The position numbers and the translations under genes are program-made. DNA of 64,000 nucleotides from an uncultured Gammaproteobacteria bacterium. GTDB taxonomy: Bacteria > Patescibacteriota > Patescibacteriia > UBA2591 > UBA6264. Shown in pieces: positions 1 to 59,149 of this stretch (position 1 is its first letter; each line of letters begins with the position of its first letter). Where the stretch lies: NCBI GenBank assembly GCA_964596735.1, contig CAZQVF010000005.1, forward strand, positions 13,328 to 77,327. The letters are read 5' to 3'. The notes under the pieces are model-generated. The model searched no databases. It was not told the DNA's origin and was given only the letters and a program-made list of their open reading frames with translations.

Positions 1-66
1 AGCCAATCAACTTTGTTTTTTCCTTATTTTATGTTATACTTTTATAAGGAAAAAATAATTATTTAT

Positions 67-148
67 AAGAACCTTCTCGCTCTGCTCGCAGAACCTTGAA
101 ATTAAATTATTATTGTATAAAAATTAAGGTAATTTGATTATAAAACTT
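67..148 (+). promoter_or_regulatory. Copy of the dispersed promoter cassette, upstream of aspS: AAGAACC-N15-CAGAACC, TTGAAA, TGTATAAA, then ATTATAAAA 4 nt before the ATG
   Basis: Near-identical sequence recurs at 12459-12530(-), 15163-15213(-), 17267-17422(+, two copies), 42865-42918(-) and 59041-59149(+). It has -35/-10-like hexamers and always points towards a downstream start codon. Confidence 0.55.
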
Positions 149-3582: not shown

Positions 3583-3619
3583 TTTTTGTTTTTCTTTTAA
3601 TCTCTGGTATAATAAAAAC

Positions 3620-10664: not shown

Positions 10665-10925
10665 TTATCTTATTGAACTAGAGGCTAGTCCTCTTATTTT
10701 TTTAAAAGTATCTCTGACGACCACCTTCTCTTTAGAAACAGATAAAACCTGTTTTGCTCCGATTATTAAGTGCCCTTGAAATAAATTTTTTAAAAAATTA
10801 TGGCTTTTAATAAAATAATTTTTAACTTGTCCTGTTTCTGGATCAATCTCCAGGTCTACTACTTGACCAAGATAATTACCACTCTCAGTATAAACTGGTA
10901 AATCAATTATCTCTTTTGGGTCCAT
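10665..10925 (-). CDS. Small PRC-barrel-like (YlmC/YmxH-like) protein
   Basis: 86 aa; pattern (IDLPVYTESGNYLGQVVDLEIDPETGQV) resembles PRC-barrel proteins. Weak. Confidence 0.3.
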   Translation of the reverse strand: MDPKEIIDLPVYTESGNYLGQVVDLEIDPETGQVKNYFIKSHNFLKNLFQGHLIIGAKQVLSVSKEKVVVRDTFKKIRGLASSSIR

Positions 10926-10936
10926 AATTCTAATAT

Positions 10937-11668
10937 CTAAGGCTTAGTTATTTGCTTTGAGGAAGCAAAAACAAGCTTTTGCTCTAAAATAGTAAATAAA
11001 AGACTAGCCAACCAATAAAGCATTAACCCGCTAGGCAGGGTCATTCCAATAAAAACCGTTAAAGCGGGCATCATAAATTTCATCTGCTTATTCATTGTTG
11101 CCATCATGTTCTCGTCTTTTGCTCCGCTTTGTTTAAGTACTTTCTTGTCCGGTTGCTCTGTTGTAAAGGCCTTCATTTGAACATATTGCAAAATGCCAGT
11201 GACCAAGGCAAGAATTGGACTAGCTTTTGCCAAATCTAGCAGGCCAAAGGCCATAATATTTAAAGTCCCTGGATTGTGAATAAAAGAATAAATAGGTAAA
11301 GAATTATCGCTTAAACCAACTCTAAAAACCTGAAAAACAGCAATTAAAATAGGAAGTTGAATTAATAATGGCAAACATGAAGAAAAAGGGTTAACCTTGT
11401 TTTCTTTGTAAAGACTCATCATTGCTTGAGCTTGCTTGTCCTTTTGATTAGCATACTTTTTTTTAAGCTCTTCTAATTTTGGCTGAAGTTCTTTAAGTGC
11501 TTTTTGTGATTTAATTGATTGGCGAGAAAGCGGGAATAACAACAACTTAAGTACCAAGGTTAAAATAATTATTGCTAGCCCTAAATCATGTCCGGGAATT
11601 AAATTGTAAAAAAACACCAGAAGATTAAGCAACGGTTCATAAAGAATTATCTTAAAAAATTCAATCAT
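10937..11668 (-). CDS. yidC: Membrane protein insertase YidC/Oxa1 (short form)
   Basis: Multi-TM protein with a conserved YidC core; sits in the rpmH-rnpA-yidD-yidC gene order. Confidence 0.8.
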   Translation of the reverse strand: MIEFFKIILYEPLLNLLVFFYNLIPGHDLGLAIIILTLVLKLLLFPLSRQSIKSQKALKELQPKLEELKKKYANQKDKQAQAMMSLYKENKVNPFSSCLPLLIQLPILIAVFQVFRVGLSDNSLPIYSFIHNPGTLNIMAFGLLDLAKASPILALVTGILQYVQMKAFTTEQPDKKVLKQSGAKDENMMATMNKQMKFMMPALTVFIGMTLPSGLMLYWLASLLFTILEQKLVFASSKQITKP

Positions 11669-11681
11669 ACTAAACTATATT

Positions 11682-11936
11682 TTATGCAGGATCCCATCCC
11701 CCCTTAGACCAAGGGTGGCAACGAAAAATTCTTTTTAAGGCTTTAATTCCTCCCTTTAAAAGACCGTATTTATTAATGGCGTCATAAGCATATTCTGAAC
11801 AAGTCGGACGGAACTTACAGGTTCCTTTCCAGGGGTGAATTAATGAAAAAACACCATGATCAGGAGAAAAGGTTTTTTGATAAAAACGGATCAATTGCAA
11901 AACTAATAATCGTGGCCAAATAAAAATTTGTTTCAT
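11682..11936 (-). CDS. yidD: Membrane protein insertion efficiency factor YidD
   Basis: 84 aa; YQKTFSP...CKFRPTCSEYA...CHPW motif is typical of YidD. Confidence 0.8.
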   Translation of the reverse strand: MKQIFIWPRLLVLQLIRFYQKTFSPDHGVFSLIHPWKGTCKFRPTCSEYAYDAINKYGLLKGGIKALKRIFRCHPWSKGGWDPA

Positions 11937-11939
11937 TCT

Positions 11940-12284
11940 TTAGGATTTAATTAAATTCTGTTTTTGAAAAAGTTTTAAAAGTTTGCTTTTAATTTGTGAA
12001 TAATCTAAATCTTCTGTTCCTGATTTAGTTAAAATCATAAAATCGTAACCCTGAACAATATTAGATAGATTTTCTTTTAAAATCGCTCTAATTCTTCTTT
12101 TTATTTTATTACGTATGACTGCCTTTTTGCTGACTTTAAGGGAAACAATAATTCCAAAACGAGAATAATTGAGATTGTTCTTAATATATTTTAAGCCTAA
12201 AGCATAACTAAAAATAATTTTTCCTTGTTGGGCAACCCGAGCAAAATCCTTGTTCTTAGTTAAACGATATTGTTTGGGCAACAT
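11940..12284 (-). CDS. rnpA: RNase P protein component
   Basis: 114 aa; LPKQYRLTKNKDF...RNKIKRRIR is the RnpA signature; located downstream of rpmH. Confidence 0.8.
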   Translation of the reverse strand: MLPKQYRLTKNKDFARVAQQGKIIFSYALGLKYIKNNLNYSRFGIIVSLKVSKKAVIRNKIKRRIRAILKENLSNIVQGYDFMILTKSGTEDLDYSQIKSKLLKLFQKQNLIKS

Positions 12285-12292
12285 AAAGCCTT

Positions 12293-12430
12293 TTAAACAG
12301 TTAACTTCTTTCTCTTTTTAGCCCGCCTTCTTTTTAATATTTGCTGGCCAGCTTTTGTTTGCATTCTCTTTTTAAAGCCATGTGTTCTGGCCCTCTTTCT
12401 TTTTTTGGGCTGATAAGTTCTTTTAGGCAT
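12293..12430 (-). CDS. rpmH: 50S ribosomal protein L34 (45 aa; not in the supplied ORF track)
   Basis: Manual minus-strand translation gives [45 protein letters not shown], a near-consensus L34, directly upstream of rnpA. Confidence 0.85.
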
Positions 12431-12458
12431 ATTAAAAAAATCTTATTAAATACTTAAT

Positions 12459-12530
12459 ACCCTATAATTAAATTACATTAATTTATATATAATAATTTAA
12501 TTTCAAGGTTCTGGTAAAGTCAGGTTCTTA
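12459..12530 (-). promoter_or_regulatory. Promoter cassette copy upstream of rpmH
   Basis: Minus-strand reads AAGAACCTGACTTTACCAGAACCTTGAAATTAAATTATTATATATAAATTAATGTAATTTAATTATAGGG; same family as 67-148. Confidence 0.5.
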
Positions 12531-12565
12531 TTTTAACACAAAAAGCACTAAACTACAAATACTAT

Positions 12566-14083
12566 TTATCTGGCGTATTCAATAATCCTGTTCTCTCTGA
12601 TTACTGTTACTTTAATTTCACCTGGATATTTTAATTCTTCTTCTATTCTATCAGCTATTTCTCTAGCTAATTTATGGGCATCTGTGTCATCGACTTCCTG
12701 AGGAGTAACAAAAACTCTTAAATCTCGACCAGCCTGAATGGCATAAACTTTTTCAACACCAGAAAAAGTCTTGGCTAAAGATTCTAGTTCTTCTAAACGT
12801 TTTAAATATTCTTCGTAAGTATCTTTTCGTGCCCCTGGTCGAGCTCCGGAAATCGCATCAGCAACTTTAACAATTACTGCTTCCAATGTTGGAGGTTTAT
12901 CTTCATGATGAGTAGCAATAGGAATAATTACCTCTTTACTTAGGCCGTATTTTTCTCCTAAATTCTTACCAAGTTCTGGATGAGTTCCTTGAACCTCAAA
13001 ATCAACTGCTTTCCCAATGTCATGAAGCAATCCAGCTTTTTTGGCTATGGAAACATCGGCTCCTAACTCGTGAGCGAGCATGGCTGAAAGTTCAGCTACT
13101 TCGATAGAATGAAGAAGTACGTTTTGCCCATAACTAGTCCGGTATTTCAATCTGCCCAGAATTTGAACTAACTTTGGATCAATAGTAGGAATTCCAGTTT
13201 GATAAAGCGCTTCTTCTCCTGCTTTTCTAATATCTCGGGCCAATTCTTTTTTCGTTTCTTCAACAATTCTCTCAATACGAGCTGGTTGAATTCGACCATC
13301 AGCAATTAATTTTTCTAAAACTAATTTTGCCAGTTGACGACGAATTGGATTAAAAGCAGAAACAAACACAACCTCAGGTGTATCATCAACAACAATTTCA
13401 GTACCTGTTAATTGTTCTACTACTTTAATATTCCTTCCTTCTCGACCAATAACCCTACCTTTCACTTCGTCTGACGGTAAAGCTACAGAAGCGATTGTCG
13501 TTTCTGCAGTATGGGCTGAAGCATATCTCTCAATAACATTGGTAATTAATTTCTTAGTTTGTTTTTCAATCTCTTCTGCGCCATATTCCTCCATTTTCTT
13601 AATTCTGAGCAAAAGATCCTCTTTCATTTTCTTTTCTAGGTTATTTAAAAGAAACTCTTTTGCTTCTTGTTCAGTCATTCCAGAAATTCTTTCTAGCTCT
13701 TGTCTTGCCTCTTCATAAAGTTGTTTAATTTTAACTTTTGCCTGTTCTAGTCTATCAGCCTTTCCAGCTAGATCCCTTTGCCTTTCTTCTATCTCAAAAA
13801 TCTTTTTTTCAAAAAGAGACTGTCTTTTTTCTAAACGCTCTTCTGAAACTTTTAGTTCTTTTCTTCTGTCTAGTTCTTCTTTTTTTGCTCTATCGATGAT
13901 CTTAAGGCTTTCTTCACGAGCTTTGAAAAAAACTTCTTGTTGTTTGACCTTAGCTTTAGTTAAAATATCTTTTGCTTTTGATTCTGCTGATTCAGTCATG
14001 TATCGACCCATTTGTCGACGAATCAACCAACCAACAAACATTCCAGCTAAGATGCCAATTAAAACGAAAATGTAATCCATCAT
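12566..14083 (-). CDS. rny: Ribonuclease Y
   Basis: N-terminal TM helix, coiled coil, KH domain (GREGRNIK) and HD domain (LLHDIGK). Confidence 0.85.
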   Translation of the reverse strand: MMDYIFVLIGILAGMFVGWLIRRQMGRYMTESAESKAKDILTKAKVKQQEVFFKAREESLKIIDRAKKEELDRRKELKVSEERLEKRQSLFEKKIFEIEERQRDLAGKADRLEQAKVKIKQLYEEARQELERISGMTEQEAKEFLLNNLEKKMKEDLLLRIKKMEEYGAEEIEKQTKKLITNVIERYASAHTAETTIASVALPSDEVKGRVIGREGRNIKVVEQLTGTEIVVDDTPEVVFVSAFNPIRRQLAKLVLEKLIADGRIQPARIERIVEETKKELARDIRKAGEEALYQTGIPTIDPKLVQILGRLKYRTSYGQNVLLHSIEVAELSAMLAHELGADVSIAKKAGLLHDIGKAVDFEVQGTHPELGKNLGEKYGLSKEVIIPIATHHEDKPPTLEAVIVKVADAISGARPGARKDTYEEYLKRLEELESLAKTFSGVEKVYAIQAGRDLRVFVTPQEVDDTDAHKLAREIADRIEEELKYPGEIKVTVIRENRIIEYAR

Positions 14084-14104
14084 ATATTTTATTTGTTAAA
14101 TAAA

Positions 14105-14135
14105 TAAAAGCCAATTCTTTTTGGCTTTTAAAAGA
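14105..14135 (-). terminator. Rho-independent terminator downstream of clpP
   Basis: Minus strand: AAGCCAA-AAAGAA-TTGGCTT hairpin followed by a TTATTTATTT run. Confidence 0.5.
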
Positions 14136-14154
14136 TTTATTTTTAAAAATGTTT

Positions 14155-14733
14155 CTATTTGGTGATAACCTTATCAACCAGACCGTATTTTTTTGCTTCC
14201 TCAACTGTCATATAAAAATCGCGGTCTGTGTCATTTTCTATCTTCTTTAACGATTGTTTAGTGTGCTTAGCTAATATCTTATTAATTCTATCTCTAACCC
14301 TTAAAATATGTTCGGCTCTAATCTTAATATCTGCGGCTGGACCCTCTGCTCCGCCCATTACTTGATGTAACATTATTTCTGCATTTGGTAGGGCCAGGCG
14401 TTTGCCTTTTGCTCCAGCTGATAAAAGGACCGCTCCCATTGAAGCAGCTGTCCCGATACAAATTGTCATTACATTTGGCCTAACATACTGCATTGTATCA
14501 TAAATAGCTAAGCCAGCTGTAACTGAACCTCCAAGAGTGTTGATATAGAGCTTGATATCCTTGTTTTTATCTTCACTAGCTAAAAACAAGAGTTGAGCAA
14601 TAACGATATTAGCAATATCATCAGTAATAGTATCACCAAGAAAAATAATTCTTTCCTTTAAAAGCCTTGAATATATATCATAAGCTCGTTCTCCATGTGT
14701 AGATTTTTCAATAACTGTTGGAACGAGATGCAT
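14155..14733 (-). CDS. clpP: ATP-dependent Clp protease proteolytic subunit
   Basis: [18 protein letters not shown]...GGSVTAG...catalytic Ser (TAASMGA)/His/Asp pattern; 192 aa. Confidence 0.9.
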
Positions 14734-14823
14734 ATATTAAAAATTGTTCACTATTAATTAATTCCCTCCTTCTAGGAGTATATCAGCCCAAAAAATTCTG
14801 TCAATTTATTGAGGTGGATAACC

Positions 14824-15162
14824 CTAATTTTTAGCTTCATCTAAGGCTTTCTCAACCTGGCTGACTTCTTCCTCTGTCTCATCAAGTAAAAATTTAATCT
14901 TAGGAATAAATTTAAGAAATAAGCTTTTATTTAATAATCTTTGTAAATAACCGATTCTCTTTGAAAGCTCTTTAAAAACTATTTTGGCCTGATTAATAGG
15001 AAAAACACTAATCCAAATTTTTGCCTGCAATAAATCGGTTGAAGTTTCTACATGAGTAATAGTAATTAACGAGCCTTCTGGCGGATCAATTTCCCTAAGA
15101 AAAATTTTGCTCATCTCTCTTTTAATCAATTCATTGATTTGTTCAATTCTTTGAGAACACAT
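14824..15162 (-). CDS. rbfA: Ribosome-binding factor A
   Basis: RIEQINELIKREMSKIF... is RbfA-like. The ORF track starts at 15192, but those first 10 codons are the conserved promoter cassette (TTGAAA-N17-TATAAA-A-ATG), so the start is moved to ATG 15162. Confidence 0.7.
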   Translation of the reverse strand: MCSQRIEQINELIKREMSKIFLREIDPPEGSLITITHVETSTDLLQAKIWISVFPINQAKIVFKELSKRIGYLQRLLNKSLFLKFIPKIKFLLDETEEEVSQVEKALDEAKN

Positions 15163-15213
15163 TTTTATAATTAAAATATTTTTTAATTTCAAGGTTCTGC
15201 GAAACAGGTTCTT
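15163..15213 (-). promoter_or_regulatory. Promoter cassette copy upstream of rbfA (-35 TTGAAA, 17-nt spacer, -10 TATAAA, 1 nt before ATG)
   Basis: Minus strand: AAGAACCTGTTTCGCAGAACCTTGAAATTAAAAAATATTTTAATTATAAAAATG. Confidence 0.55.
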
Positions 15214-15775
15214 AAAAACGAAAAAATTTAAAAGGCCTTTCTGTTAAATCAACTATAATTGATGGTTGACCAGTTAATCCCTCTCCTTTTAAGGCCAGAT
15301 TTACCTGTTGACTAAATTCTTTAGTTATCTTTTTTATACTCAAACTAGGTTGAAAGCCTGACATATTAGCGCTAGTTGTGGTTATTGGAAAATTCTTGCT
15401 TAATTGTTGACAAACCTCTGAATCAGGAATACGGACACCAATCGTTTTTTTACCCCCGGTCAAGATTTTAGACACTTTAGCTTTCTTTTTTAAAATAAAA
15501 GTAAAAGGCCCTGGCAAAAGGGCTGACATTAACTTTTCTTGTTCTTTATTAACCCGGGCCAAATCTTTAATTTCCTTTAAACTTGAAACTATTACAGACA
15601 AGGGTGCTTTAAACTCTCTACCTTTTATTCTAAAAACTTTTTGAATTGCCCCCTGATTAAAAATATCTGCTCCCAGACCGTATAGCGTGTCTGTGGGGTA
15701 AATAATTACTTCGCCTTGTTGCAAGGCCTTTCTTGCTTTTCTTATATTTATCTTAGTTGGTGAATAAACTAACAT
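15212..15775 (-). CDS. tsaC: L-threonylcarbamoyladenylate synthase (YrdC/Sua5 family)
   Basis: YrdC fold motifs: EVIIYPTDTLYGLGADIFNQGAIQKVFRIKGR, SANMSG. Confidence 0.75.
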   Translation of the reverse strand: MLVYSPTKINIRKARKALQQGEVIIYPTDTLYGLGADIFNQGAIQKVFRIKGREFKAPLSVIVSSLKEIKDLARVNKEQEKLMSALLPGPFTFILKKKAKVSKILTGGKKTIGVRIPDSEVCQQLSKNFPITTTSANMSGFQPSLSIKKITKEFSQQVNLALKGEGLTGQPSIIVDLTERPFKFFRF

Positions 15776-15777
15776 AT

Positions 15778-16329
15778 TTAAAGACCTAATTCCTTAGGAA
15801 TACTTTGCATTGCCCTTAAACTAATTTTTACAAACTCTTCAAGTGACAAATCTAGTTCTTCACAAGCGGCAATAGTTTCTCGATTAGCTCCTCGGGCAAA
15901 TCCCTTTTCTTTATACCTGTTTAAAACGTTTTCTGCACTTAAATTAATAATTTTCTTGTTTGGCATAACCAAGGTCGCCGCAACAATTAAACCAGTAATC
16001 GGGTCTGCACAAAAAAGGGCCTTGGTCATTTTATCTTCACGAGGCAAACCATGAATTTCATTATGAGCCTTAACAGCCGTAATGACTTCTGAATCAATTC
16101 CATGTTGCTGGAGCATTTCCGCCCCTAGCAAACTATGTTTTTCTGGAGTATCTTTGGTTTCTTCATAATCAATATCATGTAAAAGTCCGGTTAAAGCCCA
16201 CTTTTCAATGTTTTCATTGAAATATTTTGCTAATTCCTTCATTACTGCTTCTACGGCCAAGCAGTGCTTAACCAGATTTCTATTTTGAATCTTTTCCTCA
16301 ACTAATTTTAGAGCCTCTTCTCTAGTCAT
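15778..16329 (-). CDS. HD-domain phosphohydrolase
   Basis: H...HD motif (KHCLAV...LLHDID); 183 aa. Confidence 0.5.
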   Translation of the reverse strand: MTREEALKLVEEKIQNRNLVKHCLAVEAVMKELAKYFNENIEKWALTGLLHDIDYEETKDTPEKHSLLGAEMLQQHGIDSEVITAVKAHNEIHGLPREDKMTKALFCADPITGLIVAATLVMPNKKIINLSAENVLNRYKEKGFARGANRETIAACEELDLSLEEFVKISLRAMQSIPKELGL

Positions 16330-16991
16330 TAAAGCAATTTAAAGTTATTAATCACTAAATGGAATTTATACCCCAGATAATTAGCGGCTTGACGGCAATA
16401 AGTCATCCTTTCTGTAAAAATTTCAAAAAATTCTATAACTGGAACAAACTTTTGGTCAATCTTTAAGGTAAGAATAATCTGTTTTTTAGATCTATTAATA
16501 CTTAGATCTGATTTGGTTACTGCATAATTCACTCGATCATGAATATCGAGCTTAATTTTTTCTAAAGATTTAACTGTTACTCGGGAACGATGAACATCTG
16601 ACTTGTCAGCCAATACAACAATGGCAGATATAGGCTCTGTTAATTTCATTGTATTTTTATCATGATTAGAGATTGCCTGCATTATCCAAACAAGTTCTTT
16701 GGAGGTAAAATCATTTTTAAAAATCTGATGGAATAAAAGGGAACCCCAATAATGATGTTGTGAACGACCTAGAAAATTACCCATATCATGACAAAAGCCA
16801 GCAATAGCTGCCAAGTCTTGACCCCTTTCACTTAGATTAATTTGTTTGGCTAAATTTTTAGCCTCACGCGCAACTAATTTAGCATGGCGCAAGCCATGTT
16901 CAGTATAATCTAATGCCTTAATAGTAATTTCAGACTGATTAATAAACTCCAAAATTTTTGGATGTTTTTTTATGTCTTGAAATGTTAACAT
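16329..16991 (-). CDS. HD-domain phosphohydrolase (second, tandem)
   Basis: HGLRHAKLVAREA...FCHDMGN HD motif; 220 aa. Confidence 0.5.
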   Translation of the reverse strand: MLTFQDIKKHPKILEFINQSEITIKALDYTEHGLRHAKLVAREAKNLAKQINLSERGQDLAAIAGFCHDMGNFLGRSQHHYWGSLLFHQIFKNDFTSKELVWIMQAISNHDKNTMKLTEPISAIVVLADKSDVHRSRVTVKSLEKIKLDIHDRVNYAVTKSDLSINRSKKQIILTLKIDQKFVPVIEFFEIFTERMTYCRQAANYLGYKFHLVINNFKLL

Positions 16992-16997
16992 ACAATT

Positions 16998-17231
16998 TTA
17001 TTTAATATTTAATTTTTCCTTAAACTTTGGGACATCAAATCCCATAATCATTTCCCCGTCGATTTCTGTTACGGGTACGGCCATCTGCCCTGTTTTTTTA
17101 ATAAAATCATCAACCAGATCCTGATGTTGACTAAGATCAACCTCTTCAAACTCGATTTTATTCTCATTTAAAAAATCTTTGACATGGTGGCAATAAAGAC
17201 ATGATGGTGATGTATAAACAATTATTTTCAT
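16998..17231 (-). CDS. Glutaredoxin/NrdH-like thiol-disulfide oxidoreductase
   Basis: 77 aa, CLYC active site in a thioredoxin-fold context (KIIVYTSPSCLYC...VPVTEIDG). Confidence 0.6.
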   Translation of the reverse strand: MKIIVYTSPSCLYCHHVKDFLNENKIEFEEVDLSQHQDLVDDFIKKTGQMAVPVTEIDGEMIMGFDVPKFKEKLNIK

Positions 17232-17266
17232 ATATTCTTAGTTAATTGGTTATTTACTGTTAGTAT

Positions 17267-17422
17267 AAGAACCTGCTTCGCAGAACCTTGAAATTAAATT
17301 CTATTATATATAAATTAAGGTAATTTAATTATAAGAACCTGCTTCGCAGAACCTACCTGCCGGCAGGCAGGCCTTGAAATTAAATTCTATTGTATAAATA
17401 ATAATGTATTTTAATTATAAAG
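17267..17422 (+). repeat. Two tandem orphan copies of the promoter cassette (17267-17332 and 17333-17422); the second carries a 12-bp GC palindrome insertion CCTGCCGGCAGG
   Basis: Copy 1 reproduces the aspS upstream region through ...TAAGGTAATTTAATTATAAG, including the equivalent of aspS codons 1-4. Copy 2 carries the GC-rich palindrome at 17356-17367. No + strand ORF follows; both point into the 3' end of the minus-strand RT gene. Confidence 0.55.
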
Positions 17423-17464
17423 ATTAGAAAAAGCTCGTCAAGTTATCTTATTTTGTAATAATAT

Positions 17465-18511
17465 TTATTCTACTAAACCTACTTTCTTTCTAAATTTATA
17501 CGTATTTCCGTGAATCAATAGTCCTTGATAAGAAATAACTGTCTGTCGTTTTGGATAATTCTTTAATCTTCTAATTATCTTTCGCTTTGTGGTTGTTCGA
17601 ATCTGTCGATAGCATGGAAAATGTATCCAGCCCAAAAAATCTAAACCCGAAGCATAAGTTCTAATACAAACCTTGTGTTGATGAAGTGTCAATTTAAGTT
17701 CTTTTTGTAAAAATTCAGTGATTCTTAACAATAAACCATTGAGATACTCTTTATTGTCCGATAAAATAACGAAATCGTCGCCATATCTAATATAATATTT
17801 CACTCGCAATTCCTGTTTTATATACATATCAAATTCGTGCATATAAACATTAACGAAAAGTTGGGAAGTGAGGTTGCCAAGGGGCAGACCTATCCCCAAA
17901 CGGCTGGAATAAAAACTAAAAACTACCCTTTCAATCAACCGAATAATTTGAGAATCGTTAATGTGTCTCTTTAATATTTTAATAAGGATTTGCTGATCAA
18001 TGTTAGCAAAAAATTTCTGAATATCGCATTTTAGAATATAACAAGTTTGAGAATTATTTTTTGATACCTTCTGGGCAAAATATCTGAATCTGTTCAAAGC
18101 GCGATGCACTCCCTTGTTTTCTCTACACGAATATACATCATAAATAAACTTTCTATCAAAATAAGGACACAGCTCCTTATAAATGAGATGATGTAATAAC
18201 CGATCACGCACCGTAGCTTTGTGAATATTTCTCGGCTTGGGGTCAGAAATATTAAAAGCCGAATATGGTCCGTGAATATAAGTAAAATTAACCAGAGACT
18301 TATAAAGATCTATTAAATTATCGGCCAGCTTTATTTGAAAAATCATCACATCTTTTTTATGTCTTTTACCACACAAAAAACGCTCCCAAGTCGCTAAGAG
18401 ATTTTCTATCTTAATAATATCAATATATTTAACTTTAAACATATGACTACAATATCTGCGCGAGTACCATTGGTGCTTGTTAGAACAAAAAGGGCTTATC
18501 AAATTTGGCAC
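17465..18511 (-). CDS. Diversity-generating retroelement (DGR) reverse transcriptase
   Basis: RT motifs including LPLGNLTSQLFVNVYM ([ILV]GxxxSQ, DGR-specific) and YIRYGDDFVIL (YxDD). N-terminal ENLL...GKR.K...PY.AF.I.DPKPR.I..A...DRLLHHLI pattern typical of DGR RTs. The real start may be Met24 (18442). TR lies ~330 bp upstream. Confidence 0.85.
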   Translation of the reverse strand: MPNLISPFCSNKHQWYSRRYCSHMFKVKYIDIIKIENLLATWERFLCGKRHKKDVMIFQIKLADNLIDLYKSLVNFTYIHGPYSAFNISDPKPRNIHKATVRDRLLHHLIYKELCPYFDRKFIYDVYSCRENKGVHRALNRFRYFAQKVSKNNSQTCYILKCDIQKFFANIDQQILIKILKRHINDSQIIRLIERVVFSFYSSRLGIGLPLGNLTSQLFVNVYMHEFDMYIKQELRVKYYIRYGDDFVILSDNKEYLNGLLLRITEFLQKELKLTLHQHKVCIRTYASGLDFLGWIHFPCYRQIRTTTKRKIIRRLKNYPKRQTVISYQGLLIHGNTYKFRKKVGLVE

Positions 18512-18820
18512 AAAAATTTAGTCAATCTTAATCGACTTGATCGCTATACTATTGGTGCTAAAATCGATGAATATTTTCTATCTTTATTGGAATTAATTTT
18601 TAAGGCCTGTTTTGCTTACGATAAATTTGAAAAACTCTCAATGGTATCACAAGCGATTGGTAAAAACGATTTATTAAAATTCTTTTTACAGATTGGTTGG
18701 GAACAAAAAACCATTAACCATAAAAATTATGGTCTTCTAATACTTTTACTTGATGAAGTTGGTCGAATGCTGGGTGGCTGGAAAAAAAATATACAAGAAA
18801 AAACTCCCGCTAGTAAGTAG
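18443..18820 (+). CDS. Avd-like accessory variability determinant (four-helix-bundle, 23S rRNA IVS protein family), on the opposite strand
   Basis: 125 aa, predicted all-helical. C-terminal LDEVGRMLGGW resembles the conserved Avd/four-helix-bundle motif, and AYQIWHK resembles the N-terminal helix. It sits between TR and RT, on the opposite strand. Confidence 0.5.
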   Translation: MTTISARVPLVLVRTKRAYQIWHKNLVNLNRLDRYTIGAKIDEYFLSLLELIFKACFAYDKFEKLSMVSQAIGKNDLLKFFLQIGWEQKTINHKNYGLLILLLDEVGRMLGGWKKNIQEKTPASK

Positions 18821-18840
18821 CAGGAGAAAAAATTAAATAA

Positions 18841-18960
18841 GTCACAGAAGCAGAGCAGGCAGTCGTTATCATCCCAAGCGTTCTCAAAGTTGCCGAGGTT
18901 GAAATTAAAGTCATCATCCGAGTTGCGGTTGACATTCGGCACGCGGTAGTTGCCGTCAGA
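18841..18960 (-). repeat. DGR template repeat (TR), 120 bp, Asn(AAY)-codon rich
   Basis: 120-nt alignment to 19299-19418 with 16 mismatches. All 15 internal mismatches are A in the TR coding (minus) strand; one T/C mismatch lies at the extreme 3' (IMH-like GC-rich) end. Read in the VR frame it gives SDGNYRVPNVNRNSDDDFNFNLGNFENAWDDNDCLLCFCD. Confidence 0.85.
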
Positions 18961-19189
18961 CAATGTACAGCCCGCCACCTTTTTCACTAAGGGTAACGCC
19001 AGTCGCCCTCTGTATTTTATTCTGAGCCAAAATGCTCAATAGCACGCTGCACCGACTGATTTAATTTTTTCATAAAAGGTTGCACTCATTTACTAAGCAT
19101 GCCCAGTAAATTCCTGGCAAACTCCCTTTACGAGAATTCGATGATATAAAGCCATGGCCACATATCCAATCTATTATCCAAAAATATTA

Positions 19190-19238
19190 TACAGAAAAAA
19201 TACATAAAAGAAAAGGGTCCTTACATTGGTAAGAACCC
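19190..19238 (-). terminator. Rho-independent terminator downstream of the DGR target gene
   Basis: Minus strand: GGGTTCTTACC-AATG-TAAGGACCC hairpin (one mismatch) followed by TTTTCTTTTATGTATTTTTT. Confidence 0.5.
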
Positions 19239-19289
19239 AAAGGGTCAAAAAATCCAAAGAACAGGACTAAGAAACCAAGTGCCTAAGCA

Positions 19290-19997
19290 CTAATCGCAGT
19301 CGCAGAAGCAGAGCAGGCAGTCGCTATCATCCCAAGCGTCCTCAAAGGGGCCGAGGAAGAAAATAAAGTCACCAACCGAGTAGCGGTCGACAGACGGCAC
19401 GCGGTAGCTGCCGTCAGAATCGATCCAGAGAGCCTCTTTCTCATCAAACGAGACAGACCAACGGCTCTTTGGCAACTTGTTTTTGGCAAGTTCATAGACC
19501 AGTGAAGCGCCTTGAGCGCCGGCTAAAACAGCTTTCTGAGAATACAGGAAATTTAAACAGTCTTCCGAAGTCACAGTTTCTGTGATATTAAAAACCTTTA
19601 CCTTGAACTTTCTGCCAGGCACGAGCTTTGTTGTCGCTTTGTTAAAGTGCTTATCAGTGATGTCGGAATTGTAGTAATTAAATTCCGAGCCATGCGCTGC
19701 TGCAAAGTCAGTCAAGCGCGTAGCATGGTCGTAACCCTTAGGCACAACAATGTTAAACGCATTGGCCAATTTGAAGCGCGGGTCAGGCATAAACGGTGAA
19801 AGAGCTTGCTGACGTTGTTTCTGTGTCAGATTTAAAAAACATTCATATTCTGGCAAACTCATTTGCCCTTTCTTGATCTTCTGATTGCAATCCATATGCA
19901 GACCAGCCAATTTGGCCGCTTCTGCGCCGATAGATGTCTTATCCATCATTTTCTCCTTTGATACCAAGAGTTTAATAATTGACCCCATGCCAATCAT
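19290..19997 (-). CDS. DGR variable (target) protein, 235 aa, with the variable repeat encoding its last ~40 residues
   Basis: C-terminus ...SDGSYRVPSVDRYSVGDFIFFLGPFEDAWDDSDCLLCFCDCD is the diversified counterpart of the TR-encoded peptide. No signal peptide is evident. Confidence 0.75.
   Translation of the reverse strand: MIGMGSIIKLLVSKEKMMDKTSIGAEAAKLAGLHMDCNQKIKKGQMSLPEYECFLNLTQKQRQQALSPFMPDPRFKLANAFNIVVPKGYDHATRLTDFAAAHGSEFNYYNSDITDKHFNKATTKLVPGRKFKVKVFNITETVTSEDCLNFLYSQKAVLAGAQGASLVYELAKNKLPKSRWSVSFDEKEALWIDSDGSYRVPSVDRYSVGDFIFFLGPFEDAWDDSDCLLCFCDCD
19299..19418 (-). repeat. DGR variable repeat (VR) at the 3' end of the target gene
   Basis: See TR. A GC-rich invariant 3' segment (CGACTGCCTGCTCTGCTTCTG) forms an IMH-like end. 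A small hairpin GTGC-TTAG-GCAC abuts the stop codon. Confidence 0.85.
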
Positions 19998-20092
19998 TTT
20001 CTCAGTATTGATAATATTATGTCATATTTTAGCCTTTTTGTCAACACTCCTATTCCAAAAGACTTAAAATTTATATTAATCTAAAATAAAAA

Positions 20093-20200
20093 CACCGCCG
20101 AGGAGAATCGAACTCCTGAGACGGATTTGCCTTTAGCGGAAAACCTGGCGTCCTACAATGCTTAATAAATTAAAATGGCCCCGAGGAGAATTGAGTGAAA
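20093..20200 (-). other. Two tRNA 3'-end-like fragments (T-arm plus acceptor 3' strand), possible integration scars
   Basis: Minus strand: GGAGTTCGATTCTCCTCGGCGGTG (20093-20116) and CAATTCTCCTCGGGGCCA (~20177-20194). No complementary 5' acceptor strand or D/anticodon arms could be built. Confidence 0.3.
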
Positions 20201-20201
20201 A

Positions 20202-20891
20202 TTATTTTAATCCACTTTGTAATTTTAACGCGTCAATCCATCCTTTAATTCGAAAAGCTATCTTACGACCATGTACACGTAAATCAAGTGTGCCATATGG
20301 CAAAGAATTGATTGGACGTTTTCTGTTGCTCGCTTTGCTTATTTGTTTAAAAATGCGAAAACGACTTTTAGGAATATTAGTTACTCTAGCCCAAAAATTA
20401 ATGGCAGATTGCTCGCTAATATTAGCATGTATTCTAACACATACTTTTAATTTCTCTTCAGGGACTTTAATAATTTCTCGTAAAAAGCGAAGAAACAACG
20501 CAATCATATAAGGATCAGCATTAACAAAATCAACTACATACCCTTTGTTTTTTTGAGCCTCAATTTTATATCCCTCTGCCCAATAAAGAGCATTTGCAAC
20601 TAATAATAACTCATATTTTGACAACGAATGAATTTCATTAAAAGTCTCCTTCTTTATTCTCTGATTTTCAATCCAAATAGCACGTGTCCGTTGCCGATTG
20701 TTTTCAAATAACCCATGTTCTCGAGCAATTCTCGTTTTTTTTTCTAAAAGCTTTTTTGCTGACTTTGTTAGTTTTAAGTCTCTAAACCAAACGCTAAGCG
20801 AGCCCTTGGAAACACTTAAAGTACGAGCTATTTCATTGTAACTTTTACCCTTTAACCGCAACCTGAGCGCTTTTTGATATTGTGGATGCAT
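20202..20891 (-). CDS. HTH-domain protein of unknown function (transposase-type HTH; possible homing-endonuclease-like C-terminal region)
   Basis: KGKSYNEIARTLSVSKGSLSVWFRD is a transposase/sigma-region-4-like HTH; NALYWAEGYK is vaguely LAGLIDADG-like. The ORF track starts at 20954 inside tRNA-Glu; I prefer Met22 (20891). Confidence 0.35.
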   Translation of the reverse strand: MHPQYQKALRLRLKGKSYNEIARTLSVSKGSLSVWFRDLKLTKSAKKLLEKKTRIAREHGLFENNRQRTRAIWIENQRIKKETFNEIHSLSKYELLLVANALYWAEGYKIEAQKNKGYVVDFVNADPYMIALFLRFLREIIKVPEEKLKVCVRIHANISEQSAINFWARVTNIPKSRFRIFKQISKASNRKRPINSLPYGTLDLRVHGRKIAFRIKGWIDALKLQSGLK

Positions 20892-20909
20892 AATAATTAA
20901 ATATATAAG

Positions 20910-20982
20910 TAGCGCCAAGGGGAATCGAACCCCTGTTACATGGTTGAAAACCATGTGTCCTGACCACTAGACGATGGCGCCA
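20910..20982 (-). tRNA. tRNA-Glu (anticodon TTC)
   Basis: Minus strand GGCGCCATCGTCTAGTGGTCAGGACACATGGTTTTCAACCATGTAACAGGGGTTCGATTCCCCTTGGCGCTA. D-arm TCGTCTAG...GGAC as in bacterial tRNA-Glu, anticodon loop TTTTCAA, canonical TTCGATT T-loop, G1-U72 wobble. Confidence 0.8.
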
Positions 20983-21053
20983 TTATTATTTAGCGCAATC
21001 TTAGCAAAATTAAACGAATTTGTCAAAGAATTAATTTATGTTAAAATAATCTT

Positions 21054-39676: not shown

Positions 39677-40746
39677 GAATATTTTTTAATATTTTCTAAT
39701 CCTTTTTTTCTTAATTGATATTTTAAACTTTGATCAGTTAAAAATTCTTTTAAAGTACTGGTGATTTCTTCAATTTTATTCGGATTAAAATATAAAGCTG
39801 CCTCATCACCTACTTCAGGAATTGATCCTGCATTGCTAATAATCACTGGAGTTCCACAGGCCATTGCTTCTAAAATAGGCAAACCAAAGCCTTCATAAAG
39901 TGAGGGGAAAATAAACGCCTCTGCTCCATGATAGAAATGAACTAATTCATCAGCCTGAATATAACCAATCTGATAAATTAATGGTTTAACTTTCTCAATT
40001 TCTGAGGCAATCTCTTGATAATCAAATCCTGGGTCACCTATTAAAACTAATCTTGGAAATGATGTCTTAACTTCTGAATTAAAGAGTCTAGAATATGCTT
40101 TTATTAGATTTGTAACATTTTTTTTCTTTTCTAACCGTCCGACAAAAAGAAAATAAGGCTTTTTTATTTTATATTTTTTTAAAAGTTGGTTTATTTTCTC
40201 CTGATTTTCATTTAAATTAAACATTTCCTTGTCATAACCCTCATAAATAACATTTATTTTTTCTTCCTTAGTATAATATAACTGTATTAACTCTTCTTTG
40301 GTAAAATCTGAAGGCACTATGATTTTATCTGCTTTTTTACTTGCCCACCAATGGACAAAATAAGCATAAATTCTTTGAAGAAATGAATAAACATTTTTAA
40401 ACCTCCTGAACCCTAAATCATGGATAGTTATCACTTTTTTAGGACGACAAAAAATTGGCAAGGCATGAGCAGGAACAAATAAAACATCTGGTGGATTAAA
40501 AAATATTTCCCAACACAATCTTATATGTGTCCAAATATATTTAAAGGGCCATGACAAAACTTTACTTTGCCAATTATTAGGCAAATGAGCCAAGTCGCCT
40601 TTTAACATATCTCTTGAATATAAGACAAATTTATCCCCTGGTTTAAGGGGAATTTTTTTTAACATCTGGATTAAATGATATGAATACCACTCTACTCCTG
40701 TTTTGTTTTTTTTATTTGCCCGCGAGGCATCAATGCCGATTAGCAT
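39628..40746 (-). CDS. Glycosyltransferase family 1 (GT4)
   Basis: EGFGLPILEAMACGTPVI is the GT-B signature. Confidence 0.75.
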   Translation of the reverse strand: MLIGIDASRANKKNKTGVEWYSYHLIQMLKKIPLKPGDKFVLYSRDMLKGDLAHLPNNWQSKVLSWPFKYIWTHIRLCWEIFFNPPDVLFVPAHALPIFCRPKKVITIHDLGFRRFKNVYSFLQRIYAYFVHWWASKKADKIIVPSDFTKEELIQLYYTKEEKINVIYEGYDKEMFNLNENQEKINQLLKKYKIKKPYFLFVGRLEKKKNVTNLIKAYSRLFNSEVKTSFPRLVLIGDPGFDYQEIASEIEKVKPLIYQIGYIQADELVHFYHGAEAFIFPSLYEGFGLPILEAMACGTPVIISNAGSIPEVGDEAALYFNPNKIEEITSTLKEFLTDQSLKYQLRKKGLENIKKYSWEKCAQETIKVLLTV

Positions 40747-41753
40747 TATCTCATTGCTAAAATACTTCTTTTATACGATTCTAAATTATCCAAAGCTGTC
40801 CCTGTGCCACGCGCTACAGAAAGTAAGGGCTCATCAGCCAAATAAGTAGGGACCCCAATAGCTTGAGTTAAAAGTTTATCCATATTTCTCAAAAGCGCAC
40901 TTCCTCCAGATAAAACCATGCCTTTTTCCATAACATCAGCCGAGAGCTCTGGAGGGGTTTCATAAAGAACAGATTTAACTGCTAAAATAATAGATTGGAG
41001 TTCATTTTGAATTGCCTCTGTAATATCATCTGAATTAATCGTAAGAACTCGAGGCAGTCCAAGGATCATATCTCGCCCCTTAATATCCAGTTTTAATTTT
41101 TTCTCCAATGGCAGGGCTGAACCAATCTTTATTTTAATTTCTTCTGCCGTCCTTTCCCCTACGGCCAAATTATATTTTTTTCGAATAAAAGTAGTAAGAG
41201 AAGAATCAAACTTATTTCCAGCCACCCGAACAGAAGTACAGGCAACAATTCCCCCTAAAGAAATAACTGCTGCTTCAGTAGTTCCCCCACCAATATCAAT
41301 AATCATATGACCCGAAGCTGATCCAATCGGGATATTTGCTCCAATCGCCGCCGCTATGGGTTCTTTGATGATATAGGCTGCTTTAGCTCCTGAACGCATG
41401 GTGGCATCAACCACGGCCCTTCTTTCTGAAGAAGTAATCCCTCCTGGAACGGCAACCATCACCTCTGGTCTAAAAATATTAAAACGACCGATTACTTTAC
41501 CAATAAAATATTTTAACATCGCCTCTGTGGTCTTATAATCAGCGATAACCCCATCTTTCAGGGGTTTTTTTGCAATAATAGTATCTGGAGTCCGCCCAAT
41601 CATTTCCTTGGCCTCGTCACCCACGGCTAAAACGCTTTTATCAATGGTAGAAATAGCGACCACTGAAGGCTCGTTGGTGACAATGCCTTTATCTGGTAAA
41701 TAAACCAAAATGTTGGTCGTTCCTAAGTCAATGCCGACTTTCTTAATAAACAT
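40746..41753 (-). CDS. MreB/Mbl-family actin homologue (second paralogue)
   Basis: VGIDLGTTNILVYL... and full actin-fold motifs; 335 aa. Confidence 0.8.
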   Translation of the reverse strand: MFIKKVGIDLGTTNILVYLPDKGIVTNEPSVVAISTIDKSVLAVGDEAKEMIGRTPDTIIAKKPLKDGVIADYKTTEAMLKYFIGKVIGRFNIFRPEVMVAVPGGITSSERRAVVDATMRSGAKAAYIIKEPIAAAIGANIPIGSASGHMIIDIGGGTTEAAVISLGGIVACTSVRVAGNKFDSSLTTFIRKKYNLAVGERTAEEIKIKIGSALPLEKKLKLDIKGRDMILGLPRVLTINSDDITEAIQNELQSIILAVKSVLYETPPELSADVMEKGMVLSGGSALLRNMDKLLTQAIGVPTYLADEPLLSVARGTGTALDNLESYKRSILAMR

Positions 41754-41820
41754 ATCATTACTTTATCTAAATATCAAAAAAAGTCAACCTTTCTTATTTT
41801 TGTGATAAAGCTATAAAAAA

Positions 41821-42864: not shown

Positions 42865-42918
42865 AGTTTATAATTAAAATGTTTTTTAATTTCAAGGTTC
42901 TGGCGAAGCCAGGTTCTT
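42865..42918 (-). promoter_or_regulatory. Promoter cassette copy upstream of the AI-2E transporter gene (-35 TTGAAA, 17-nt spacer, -10 TATAAA, 2 nt before ATG)
   Basis: Minus strand: AAGAACCTGGCTTCGCCAGAACCTTGAAATTAAAAAACATTTTAATTATAAACTATG. Confidence 0.55.
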
Positions 42919-42944
42919 ATTTTTTAAATTTATAATTATCTATA

Positions 42945-44219: not shown

Positions 44220-44220
44220 T

Positions 44221-45591: not shown

Positions 45592-45628
45592 ATAAATATG
45601 ATAACAGATTTGTTAGAAAAATAAAGAT

Positions 45629-46720
<1,092 letters not shown>

Positions 46721-46759
46721 TTATTTATAAGCAAAGCTTGAAATTAAAAAACATTTTAA

Positions 46760-47479
46760 CTATAAATGCCAGCTGAAAAACAGCTTAATCACTTTCTCGG
46801 CTATTTGTAAATCCTTTTGGACAAATTTTTGTTGAATTAAAGAAGCAAAATCTTGGTAAAGCAATTTTCGTAAAACCATTAAAGCTTTTATATTAATTCT
46901 GACTTGTTGATTGTTAGCGTTGTCATCTAAATTATGTTTTAAGCAAACAATTCCCCCTTTTTCTAAATTAAAAACAATCTCTTCTTCTTGGGGTGTTTGA
47001 TAACAAATTAGACAGGTTTTTATCTCTGGACAATATCCTGAGAAAGCGAGGAATTTGATTAAAAAAGCATGATTAATAATCCTAATTTTATTTAAAGGAA
47101 TTTGATTAATTATTTTTAAAAATTTTAATATCAGAAGGAAAATTTTTTTATCAGACTGGGGTTTAATTAATTGATTAATTCGTTTTAGTAAAGTATTGGT
47201 TTGAATAATCTTTTGTTCTTCTGTAATAATATTCTTAAAACGTTCCTTAACCTCACCGCCAATTAAATGAGTATGACTTTTCCCTGGAGCAACAACTAAA
47301 TCTAATAAAGCAAAAGGCTCCGAAATAAGTGGAGCCAGCTTAGAATTGATTTTACGAGCCCCGCGAACAAAGACTTCTAATTTGCCAGATTCTTGACTAT
47401 AAAAAGATATAACTTGATCATTCTCCCGCCAATTCTCTCTGGCCAAAATTATTCCCAGTAAATGTTGGGTTCTAGACAT
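46760..47479 (-). CDS. recO: DNA repair protein RecO
   Basis: N-terminal OB fold (GIILARENWRENDQVISFYSQESGKL) and C-terminal C4 zinc motif (CLICYQ...CLKH). Confidence 0.7.
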   Translation of the reverse strand: MSRTQHLLGIILARENWRENDQVISFYSQESGKLEVFVRGARKINSKLAPLISEPFALLDLVVAPGKSHTHLIGGEVKERFKNIITEEQKIIQTNTLLKRINQLIKPQSDKKIFLLILKFLKIINQIPLNKIRIINHAFLIKFLAFSGYCPEIKTCLICYQTPQEEEIVFNLEKGGIVCLKHNLDDNANNQQVRINIKALMVLRKLLYQDFASLIQQKFVQKDLQIAEKVIKLFFSWHL

Positions 47480-57809: not shown

Positions 57810-57863
57810 AGATTAGTTGAAAGTTAAGTGGTCGTCATCGGGGTGCCCGGAATCGAACCCGGG

Positions 57864-59006: not shown

Positions 59007-59040
59007 AATCGTATCTTTTAAATATTTTAATTTAGTATAT

Positions 59041-59149
59041 AAGAACCTGCTCACTTCGTTCGCAGAACCTTGAAATTAAATATTTATTGTATAAAATATT
59101 AATGTACTTCAATTATAATATATTAACATTTTAAACTTATTTAGCAAGT
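59041..59149 (+). promoter_or_regulatory. Promoter cassette copy upstream of the M50 peptidase gene
   Basis: AAGAACCTGCTCACTTCGTTCGCAGAACCTTGAAATTAAATATTTATTGTATAAAATATTAATGTACTTCAATTATAATA... Confidence 0.5.

Follow-up and report, generated by a model that had tools for sequence, protein, structure and literature searches.

Introduction

Correia elements (CREE/NEMIS) of Neisseria are ~100-155 bp long, end in 26-bp terminal inverted repeats, have a TA-containing target duplication and often lie as hairpins in mRNA leaders, and their -10/-35-like end boxes can create promoters. REP/BIME sequences of enterobacteria and pseudomonads have a GTAG head, are found mostly after genes and go with a RAYT gene. 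BOX and RUP of Streptococcus pneumoniae and ERIC/IRU of enterobacteria are modular small intergenic repeats with hairpin potential, which sometimes affect the expression of neighbouring genes and whose mobilisation is unknown or occurs in trans. The Patescibacteria (Candidate Phyla Radiation) have small streamlined genomes that are understood as repeat-poor, and to our knowledge nothing is known experimentally of their promoters. Here we analyse a 64,000-nucleotide stretch of a Patescibacteria genome (contig CAZQVF010000005.1; hereafter the window), in which an initial annotation had noted copies of a promoter-like cassette upstream of aspS, rpmH, rbfA and other genes. We conclude that each cassette is probably one copy of a small, non-autonomous mosaic repeat of intergenic DNA, which is mobile in Patescibacteria now or was so recently, and whose promoter parts are used opportunistically.

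Results

Layout of the unit and comparison with described systems

The repeat unit is non-coding, 44 to ~110 bp long, and contains two hairpin modules (hp1 and P2) with TAA at both flanks, in the order TAA, (A)GAACC, hp1, AGAACC, TTGAAATT, P2, AATTA and TAA. Between the two AGAACC hexamers lies the first module, hp1, an imperfect G+C-rich hairpin whose length varies. The second module, P2, consists of an A+T-only stem, AATTxxxx/xxxxAATT, within a TTGA...ATA(A) frame; its loop of 4 to ~55 nt has several discrete inserts. The by-eye consensus of 136 copies from the window and other genomes reads (AATT)ATA, then AGAACC - hp1 - AGAACC TTGAAATT - x...x' - AATTATA(A/G). The hairpin-forming spacer of the initial annotation corresponds to hp1, and its stem does covary (see below), but the second stem, P2, had been missed.

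The units resemble Correia elements in being very small non-coding multicopy intergenic repeats with a target duplication, promoter-like boxes and leader hairpins; unlike those, they have no terminal inverted repeats, go down to 47 bp, and have two independent hairpin modules and TAA flanks. With REP/BIME they share mosaic imperfect palindromes, strand-biased hairpins with G.T and mismatches by a short motif, variable tips, and clusters and tandems. As in REP/BIME, hp1 is an imperfect palindrome with strand-specific mismatches (97-99% paired, with G.U and tandem G.A), and by analogy mobilisation through single-stranded hairpins is plausible for it. They differ in that AGAACC (GGTTCT), not GTAG, stands on both sides of the hairpin and in that the units lie upstream of genes. 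No RAYT gene was found near units with a crude HUH-Y1 pattern over ~8 kb per match, which is not a proper test.

The modular design (boxA-boxB-boxC-like) of intergenic hairpin repeats is shared with BOX, RUP and ERIC, whereas sequences, hosts and module content are unrelated, and we know of no report of TAA duplication or of a terminal TATAAT used as -10 in BOX elements. Like the PATEs of IS200/IS605, the units lack terminal inverted repeats and have subterminal hairpins, insertion beside a short specific sequence similar to the opposite end of the element, and strand-specific structure. PATEs, however, have similar left and right hairpins and a fork-linked orientation, while here a G+C-rich hp1 is combined with an A+T-only P2. 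The eight copies in the window showed no fork or replication orientation bias, those left of the GC-skew minimum being split ~3 to 4 between the strands, and neither TnpA nor TnpB was seen near units (~8 kb per match). As in a classical miniature inverted-repeat transposable element, the unit is small, non-coding and multicopy (8 copies in 64 kb), and filled and empty sites show a TAA target-site duplication (47 and 55 bp; precise deletion would look alike); the terminal inverted repeats of that class are lacking, as (A)GAACCTG... and the reverse-complement 3' end TATAATTAAA... share only TATAA.

Two further candidates were rejected. The 28-bp short P2 module fits the 11-6-11 geometry of Xer/dif-like sites, but the P2 span ranges from 19 to >60 nt and the arms are unlike dif arms (judged by eye). 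TIGR (Tas) guide-RNA arrays also occur in Patescibacteria (doi 10.64898/2026.09.09.750476); an array of this kind was dismissed because the variable parts are self-complementary, neighbouring units are identical, UGAUGA/CUGA motifs are absent and the copies are dispersed. A literature search by topic and sequence words returned no description of the repeat, only unrelated primer matches. The simplest account is that the repeat is of the small mosaic intergenic kind (BIME, BOX, Correia) and a member of no named family.

Eight copies in 64 kb

The window (33% G+C) contains six exact matches to AGAACCTTGAAA and one with 1 mismatch; shuffled windows gave 1.19 +/- 1.03 matches at <=1 mismatch, and 7 was reached in 0 of 100 shuffles. 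A search for AGAACC-N(3-45)-AGAACC returned exactly 7 units, at 68-95, 17268-17287, 17334-17353 and 59042-59069 on the plus strand and at 12507-12528, 15193-15212 and 42896-42917 on the minus strand. All sites of the initial annotation contain the module. Its spacer lengths (15, 15, 17, 17 and 23 nt) do not agree with those measured, which in position order are 16, 10, 8, 8, 8, 10 and 16 nt from AGAACC to AGAACC, or 15, 9, 7, 7, 7, 9 and 15 nt from AAGAACC to CAGAACC. A relaxed search of the window gave no full copy beyond the 7; an eighth copy, without hp1 and overlooked before, was found at 46726-46765 (plus strand) by listing all TTGAAATT sites. The same sequence recurs in independent assemblies from JGI (a 315-kb contig among them), ENA and Logan, and the copies are thus not assembly artefacts, a possibility that the annotation had raised. 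The closest proteins to the window AspRS are labelled Patescibacteria group, Falkowbacteria and Buchananbacteria. The copies are as follows.

66..143, plus strand: unit 1, long form, between tRNA-Asn (end at window position 5) and aspS (ATG at 149)
66-68, 68-73, 74-89, 90-95 and 96-103, plus strand: in unit 1, TAA, AGAACC, hp1 spacer, AGAACC and TTGAAATT
100-107, 132-139, 137-142 and 141-143, plus strand: in unit 1, P2 5' arm, P2 3' arm (one T.G), ATTATA and TAA
12463..12530, minus strand: unit 2, long form, 5' of rpmH (12430..12293, minus) and 3' of the RNase Y gene
12528-12523, 12512-12507, 12506-12499 and 12468-12463, minus strand: in unit 2, AGAACC, AGAACC (hp1 spacer 10 nt), TTGAAATT and ATTATA
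15166..15214, minus strand: unit 3, short form (47-bp insertion), between the Sua5/YrdC TAA stop (15214-15212) and the rbfA ATG (15162)
17266..17333, plus strand: unit 4a, the first copy of a tandem pair; long form with an 8-nt hp1 spacer
17334..17419, plus strand: unit 4b, long form, with a 20-nt palindromic insertion at 17354-17373
42869..42919, minus strand: unit 5, short form with a 10-nt hp1 spacer, flanked by the M16 peptidase and AI-2E transporter genes
46726..46765, plus strand: unit 6, no hp1, TATAAGCAAAGC-TTGAAATTAAAAAACATTTTAACTATAA, that is TATAAGCAAAGC and a short P2 module
59040..59118, plus strand: unit 7, long form, hp1 spacer 16 nt, in a 143-bp divergent spacer

Units 4a and 4b, the two "orphan" copies of the initial annotation, form a tandem that lies reversed in the leader of a glutaredoxin operon (16998-17231, minus). 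The insertion at 17354-17373 is a G+C-rich palindrome, TACCTGCCGGCAGGCAGGCC, between AGAACC and TTGAAA of unit 4b; extra mini-palindromes nested in the repeat in a similar way are also seen in stretches L048, L055 and L109 (L numbers denote stretches other than the window). Unit 6 overlaps the stop of one gene (46760-47479, minus) and lies reversed, 10 nt 5' of the start (46717) of the next (45629-46717, minus). Its variant, AAGCA(G/A)AGC-TTGAAATT, recurs in stretches L023, L077, L082 and L118. Unit 7 occupies the spacer between the L28 gene (ATG at 59006, minus) and the M50 peptidase gene (ATG at 59150, plus). The cumulative GC-skew minimum and a switch in gene strand (~59000-60000) coincide with this spacer, and the region may be a replication origin or terminus-like switch; no perfect DnaA box cluster was found at ~59000-60000.

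Both stems covary

P2 joins TTGA-AATTxxxx to xxxxAATT-ATA, the AATT of TTGAAATT and the next 2-6 bases pairing just before the terminal AATTATA. The arms change together, as in AATTAAAT/ATTTAATT, AATTGAAT/ATTCAATT, AATTCC/GGAATT, AATTGAG/CTCAATT, AATTTCT/AGAAATT, AATTAC/GTAATT and AATTAAGC/GCTTAATT. At least 6 Watson-Crick pairs form in 91 of 121 Patescibacteria copies, and the spans fall into classes of 19-23, 31-34, 37-44 (the majority), 48-49 and ~60 nt. A stem of >=8 with the arm in the unit's own tail is found in 50% of units, versus 8.7% in the tails of other arm classes. In two-arm constructs, the covariation score was 0.303 against 0.107 in shuffles (reached in 0 of 500), the first two variable pairs being biased by arm anchoring, and 81% of cells were paired, versus 29-54% with the partner slid.

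The 79 distinct hp1 spacers fall into few architectures. Read on the reverse strand, 99% of cells are paired in the 16-nt class, where one pair shows GC:11/AU:8 and eight cells are G.U; in the 10-nt class the figure is 97%, three pairs have changed on both sides and one pair varies as CG/AU/GC. Sliding the partner lowers pairing to 23-62%. Both stems therefore covary. On the same strand the AGAACC repeats read GGUUCU and pair with each other through two G.U and one U.U, so that the left module forms one long hairpin on that strand only.

The reverse strand thus appears to be the one on which hp1 folds. The predicted RNA fold of that strand is the more stable in 76 of 79 variants (mean -8.3 vs -4.1 kcal/mol), and the forward-strand hairpin is weak. 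Non-Watson-Crick positions on the reverse strand are G.A rather than its converse (109 vs 6, mostly in CGAG/CGAG context) and G.T (28 vs 9), and the loops are purine-N-A in 59 of 68 (GAA, AAA, GTA, AGA, GCA, GGA), giving GCGAAGC-type mini-hairpins. This strand bias is independent of the orientation of the unit to genes.

Distribution in Patescibacteria

We ran the genome-wide pattern search that the initial annotation had proposed, with the exact pattern AAGAACC-N(5-30)-AGAACCTTGAAATT in a collection of species-representative genomes, and examined ~8 kb of sequence around each match. The exact core occurs in at least 103 stretches, nearly all from Patescibacteria; among the matches listed, ~43 Patescibacteria species assemblies have true units. 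The carriers among these matches are labelled Daviesbacteria, Falkowbacteria, Parcubacteria, Minisyncoccales and "Saccharibacteria", and include some evidently mislabelled metagenome-assembled genomes (MAGs). One MAG has copies on at least 14 contigs. Some 9 of the listed matches come from other phyla, where they fall within genes or a Cas12a-type CRISPR repeat; they look like matches by chance, and their number is near that expected. The CRISPR repeat (L022, 6509-6548, Lachnospiraceae, ...AGAACCTTGAAATTTCTACTGTTGTAGAT) is a chance match unrelated to the element. A search of 2.9 million viral contigs with the exact core gave 0 matches, and in this collection the element is thus not carried by phages.

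Near-identical units commonly follow one another in tandem, two or three to an array, with periods of 58-81 (L085, L099 and L108). Lone hp1 modules occur in tandem without P2 (L016, L048 and L062), and lone P2 modules follow the mini-hairpin AAGCA(G/A)AGC (L023, L077, L082, L118 and window 46726). The spacing of the AGAACC half-sites ranges from 7 to 38 nt across the family. The conservation of the cores (AGAACC twice, TTGAAATT and AATTATA) partly follows from searching with exact cores.

Whole units are gained or lost at TAA

Contigs of a related species, KR13_N2.mb.83, match the window at 87-96% identity in coding regions and share synteny with 10918-17334 and 40313-45623. The loci that differ are the following.

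rbfA: window CGTTTT-(TAAGAACC...TTTTAATTA)-TAAAAATG, with a 47-bp unit at the Sua5 TAA stop; KR13_N2.mb.83 CGTTTTTAAAGATG, empty
Translin/DUF1653: window genome empty at the Translin TAA stop; KR13_N2.mb.83 with a 55-bp unit
rpmH: window with a unit; KR13_N2.mb.83 without a unit, with an unrelated spacer and its own extended -10 promoter TTGTGT-N-TGTTATAAT
AI-2E: window with a short unit, hp1 10 nt; KR13_N2.mb.83 with a short unit, hp1 16 nt, and an extra upstream unit
"Orphan" locus (17266-17419): window with two units; KR13_N2.mb.83 with one unit and a remnant

Two of these are precise filled/empty pairs, of 47 bp and 55 bp, each at the TAA stop codon of the upstream gene, and TAA (possibly ATAA) flanks both insertions. 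Whole units are thus gained or lost at TAA. Flank counts over 118 copies (T at -2 in 90% and A at -1 in 98% before AGAACC; ATAA after P2) fit with a TAA duplication, in line with the check for target-site duplications that the initial annotation had called for, although precise deletion would leave the same pattern. The wider 5' flank consensus, TTTAATTATA, equals the 3' end of the unit itself, as expected if units often land beside units. Smaller changes occur as well: orthologous units in two other genomes differ by an 8-nt indel at the hp1 tip.

Turnover is also seen at aspS. Four relatives, whose AspRS is 74-82% identical, have asnS, a small open reading frame (ORF; missing in one) and aspS packed with gaps of 0-14 nt and no unit, whereas the window species has a terminator, tRNA-Asn and then unit 1. 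Window positions 1-5 are the CCA end of the tRNA-Asn(GTT) gene, which follows the asnS terminator (L001, 9637-9857); the relatives carry an ORF of 105-111 aa in place of this tRNA gene. No units were found in the 7 kb around aspS in three of the four relatives. The fourth has a variant without hp1 before tRNA-Cys, where the window has a plain promoter.

Next to the tandem pair, window 17465-20897 is a diversity-generating retroelement, with an RVT_1 reverse transcriptase gene (17465-18442, minus) and a bAvd accessory gene (18443-18820, plus), the latter followed by a G+C-richer structured stretch (18821-19289). The segment ~17335-20897 has no counterpart in an otherwise syntenic 8-kb segment (L097) of the related species, and is bordered by tRNA-Glu (20909-20981) and an apparent tRNA 3'-half fragment near 20080-20110. 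Elsewhere, window 57810-57863 contains a tRNA T-arm and acceptor-like sequence, CCCGGGTTCGATTCCGGGCACC, which is not called a tRNA by ARAGORN or Rfam.

Gene context and promoter parts

Gene contexts were assigned to 130 copies with a simple ORF caller. Between co-directional genes, 36 units are forward and 26 reversed (p=0.25 vs 1:1); 20 lie between divergent genes, and 2 of 84 between convergent genes (p=3e-4 against 15%). The element therefore lives in 5' and intercistronic spacers, and its orientation is not fixed. The annotation was right to place the copies upstream of genes, and this holds across genomes, but not to call them always oriented towards the gene: both orientations are common, and units 4a and 4b are reversed before the glutaredoxin operon. 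The neighbouring genes (aspS, rpmH, rbfA, a transporter, a peptidase, tRNAs, tuf, dnaK and S17) are functionally unrelated.

The ordinary promoters of the window genome are canonical: TTGATT-N17-TATAAT (tRNA-Cys), TTGACA-N17-TATATT (clpB) and TTGACT-N17-TATATT (tmRNA). Several of them place the ATG 7 nt after the -10, and the distance is 7 nt or more. At 3583-3619 and 20982-21053, sigma-70 promoters have the ATG exactly 7 nt after the -10 (TATAAT-AAAAAC-ATG and TAAAAT-AATCTT-ATG), which suggests that leaderless mRNAs may be common in this organism.

Against this background, the unit resembles a sigma-70 promoter (TTGACA-N17-TATAAT) at two points: the geometry of the short form, and the reverse-strand end, which is TATAAT in 74 of 91 copies. 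In reversed units, this terminal TATAAT is paired with a -35 outside the unit (TTGACT, TTGACA, TTGACG or TTGATT) at 16-17 nt, as in L019, L069, L097, L104 (towards a tRNA) and window 17441->17414. Where a gene lies on that side, 21 of 42 copies have an outside -35 (>=4/6 matches, at 16-18 nt), versus 3 of 33 where none does (p=1.5e-4), and TGn precedes the reverse TATAAT in 17 of 42 versus 2 of 33 (p=1e-3). In the window, the terminal ATTATA of unit 4b (17414-17419) is, on the minus strand, the TATAAT of TTGACG(17441-17436)-N16-TATAAT, an 11/12 match that points at the glutaredoxin gene and whose -35 is kept in the relative's L097. A reversed unit with an outside -35 would thereby become a 5' leader. 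Judging from promoter position, transcription passes through reversed hp1 into tuf (L060), the L28 gene and the glutaredoxin operon, which would make hp1 an inefficient terminator.

The strongest competing explanation is that the unit is a self-contained promoter cassette selected by the host, with TTGAAA as -35, the A+T box in or at the end of P2 as -10 and hp1 upstream as an insulator or terminator that blocks divergent or incoming transcription, and that it has spread as something useful. The short form is exactly TTGAAA-N17-TATAAA, with sigma-70 spacing, as in unit 3, and short forms point to the downstream gene in 12 of 14 cases (p=0.013), as a promoter would. A promoter scan gave some long forms in the window 9-10/12, among them unit 7 (TTGAAA(59070)-N16-TAAAAT, 10/12). 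The placement in 5' regions with avoidance of convergent spacers, the cores conserved across lineages and a dnaK copy kept in two Daviesbacteria-type genomes would fit as well. However, the long forms, which are the majority class, have no orientation preference (17 same/co vs 15 div/conv), and in 54 distinct long forms -10-like hexamers at N16-18 from TTGAAA are not more frequent than at N12-15; the mid and extra-long P2 classes have no -10-like box at N16-18 at all. Start codons often follow the terminal box too closely, whereas the genome's own promoters put the ATG at least 7 nt after the -10. The rbfA ATG stands 1 nt after TATAAA and 4 nt after ATTATA, that of AI-2E (42864) 2 nt after TATAAA, and distances of 0-5 nt recur in many other copies, including L042, L027, L084 and cases reading AATT-ATG, with the tRNA of L075 2 nt after the box; such genes would have to be transcribed from upstream. 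Candidate promoters of extended -10 type already stand 5' of the aspS and rpmH units (seen by eye, with only 3/6 in the -35, and unreported by the scan). Unit 3 sits at a sua5-rbfA operon junction where the relative needs no promoter, and the read-through of reversed hp1 at the EF-Tu and L28 genes speaks against a role as terminator. Within the family, the distance from TTGAAA to the terminal box varies from 17 to >60 nt, unlike that of a sigma-70 promoter, and promoter geometry is thus not what the family conserves. We consider the promoter cassette unlikely, and promoter use by the units looks opportunistic.

The two proposals of the annotation fared differently. The TTGAAA-N13-17-TATAAA module describes the short form (N17) and, at most, some of the long forms. 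Of the "mobile promoter-carrying miniature element", the mobile miniature part is backed by the two filled/empty pairs with TAA, the turnover and the ~43 genomes. "Promoter-carrying" applies in part: to the reverse TATAAT with its outside -35 or TGn and to the short form, but not to the long forms as a class or to the many copies with starts too close.

Other explanations

A structured RNA element, acting as a 5' leader or a reverse-strand small RNA in which hp1 and P2 by the start codon control stability or translation, for example in a thermometer-like manner, would account for the covariation of both stems, for the preference of hp1 for one strand through G.U pairs and for the many units in leaders behind a canonical promoter. 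It is also favoured by the copies upstream of dnaK (L021, 1058-1140; L106, reverse strand, ~2640-2715), where the P2 3' arm lies in codons 2-4, P2 encloses the Shine-Dalgarno sequence and the AUG, and the arms change in a compensatory way between the genomes (AATTTTTGAC/GTCAAAAATT vs AATTTTTGT/ACAAAAATT); the predicted hairpin resembles an RNA thermometer. But units are transcribed in either orientation without a matching change in the strand bias of hp1; the family turns over by insertion or deletion and forms tandem arrays; and a start site from the reverse TATAAT would fall inside a P2 arm, leaving P2 unable to form in such a transcript. Rfam, at gathering and permissive thresholds, gave only tmRNA and tRNAs in the window and chance-level matches at 17150-17500, with no family at threshold and best sub-threshold E-values of 0.47-8. 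We therefore regard a structured RNA as improbable.

The regulator-site and terminator readings are poorly supported, and we think both highly improbable. A shared transcription factor site defining a regulon, as suggested in the initial annotation, is invited by two perfectly conserved direct hexamers beside a -35-like box at several genes, but instead of the fixed spacing and ortholog conservation of an operator the half-sites are 7-38 nt apart, the genes are unrelated in function, the site is absent or different at orthologous loci, and units occur in both orientations and in tandem arrays. An intrinsic, possibly bidirectional, terminator that happens to adjoin promoters is suggested by the G+C-rich stem followed by TTCTTATA on the reverse strand and by two copies, and two only, that the scan flags, yet instead of standing at gene 3' ends only 2 of 84 copies lie between convergent genes, the tail (TTCTTATA) is poor in U compared with the real terminators of the genome, the forward-strand hairpin is weak, and transcription of essential genes (tuf, L28, the glutaredoxin operon) has to pass through it.

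Discussion

We propose the following model for the repeat. Units would be gained and lost whole at TAA, which is offered by stop codons at operon junctions, by TATAA(T)-like boxes and by the 3' end of the unit itself; insertion at this last site would give the tandem arrays. Whatever their orientation, they would survive only where they lie in 5' or intercistronic spacers. A mobilising activity would recognise the strand-biased fold of hp1 and the conserved cores (two copies of AGAACC, TTGAAATT and AATTATA), possibly on single-stranded DNA, as for REP/RAYT or IS200/IS605. Since the strand bias of hp1 is independent of host transcription of the unit, it seems to belong to the element itself, and by analogy we infer, as the most natural reading, that the element is recognised in single-stranded hairpin form. 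A reversed copy would place its terminal TATAAT at the -10 position, with the -35 outside, and would become the 5' leader. Forward copies would mostly be transcribed through from upstream, and an outward promoter is plausible only in some of them, namely short forms whose ATG is distant and part of the long forms.

Several observations weigh against a mobile repeat. It is unusual for a selfish element to have identical cores across several candidate phyla or classes, which could hint at a function for the host. The short forms are biased towards the downstream gene, and the dnaK module is kept at the same place in two Daviesbacteria-type genomes with a compensatory change in P2. Clean empty sites number only two, and precise deletion between TAA repeats would look the same as insertion. 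No presence/absence polymorphism was seen among 8-16 same-species contigs from different samples at the aspS and glutaredoxin loci, which were identical. No terminal inverted repeats were found, nor was a mobilising gene or transposase near units, with a crude HUH...Y..Q pattern that gave 0 among 1169 ORF segments in the ~8 kb sampled per match. Finally, with DNA nearest-neighbour parameters, single hairpins are not significantly stable (z -2.7 to +0.65) and show no strand difference, in a folding model that does not parametrise sheared G.A or purine-N-A loops; structure is thus supported by comparison, not by energies. On balance, we still hold the small non-autonomous mosaic repeat to be the probable explanation.

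It is tempting to go further and see in the units the footprint of an undescribed mobilisation system shared across Patescibacteria, although we would give this only an outside chance. Here the target of a domesticated or host-encoded enzyme would be a single-stranded GGTTCT-hairpin-GGTTCT that has a purine-N-A triloop and tandem G.A pairs; the enzyme would paste a module of 44 bp or more at TAA stops and -10 boxes, rewiring operon boundaries and leaders. The palindromic TTATAA end, together with TTGAAA, would then rebuild or donate promoter parts in both orientations.

A repeat of 47 to ~110 bp common to dozens of species from several candidate phyla would be notable in genomes of this kind. 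If confirmed, it would represent a new source of change in regulation and operon structure in Patescibacteria, through the turnover of units at stop codons and -10 boxes and through a lent TATAAT. The repeat could further act as a marker in the search for its mobilising enzyme, and ready-made promoters and leaders native to Patescibacteria could be taken from it for the genetic systems under construction in this group.

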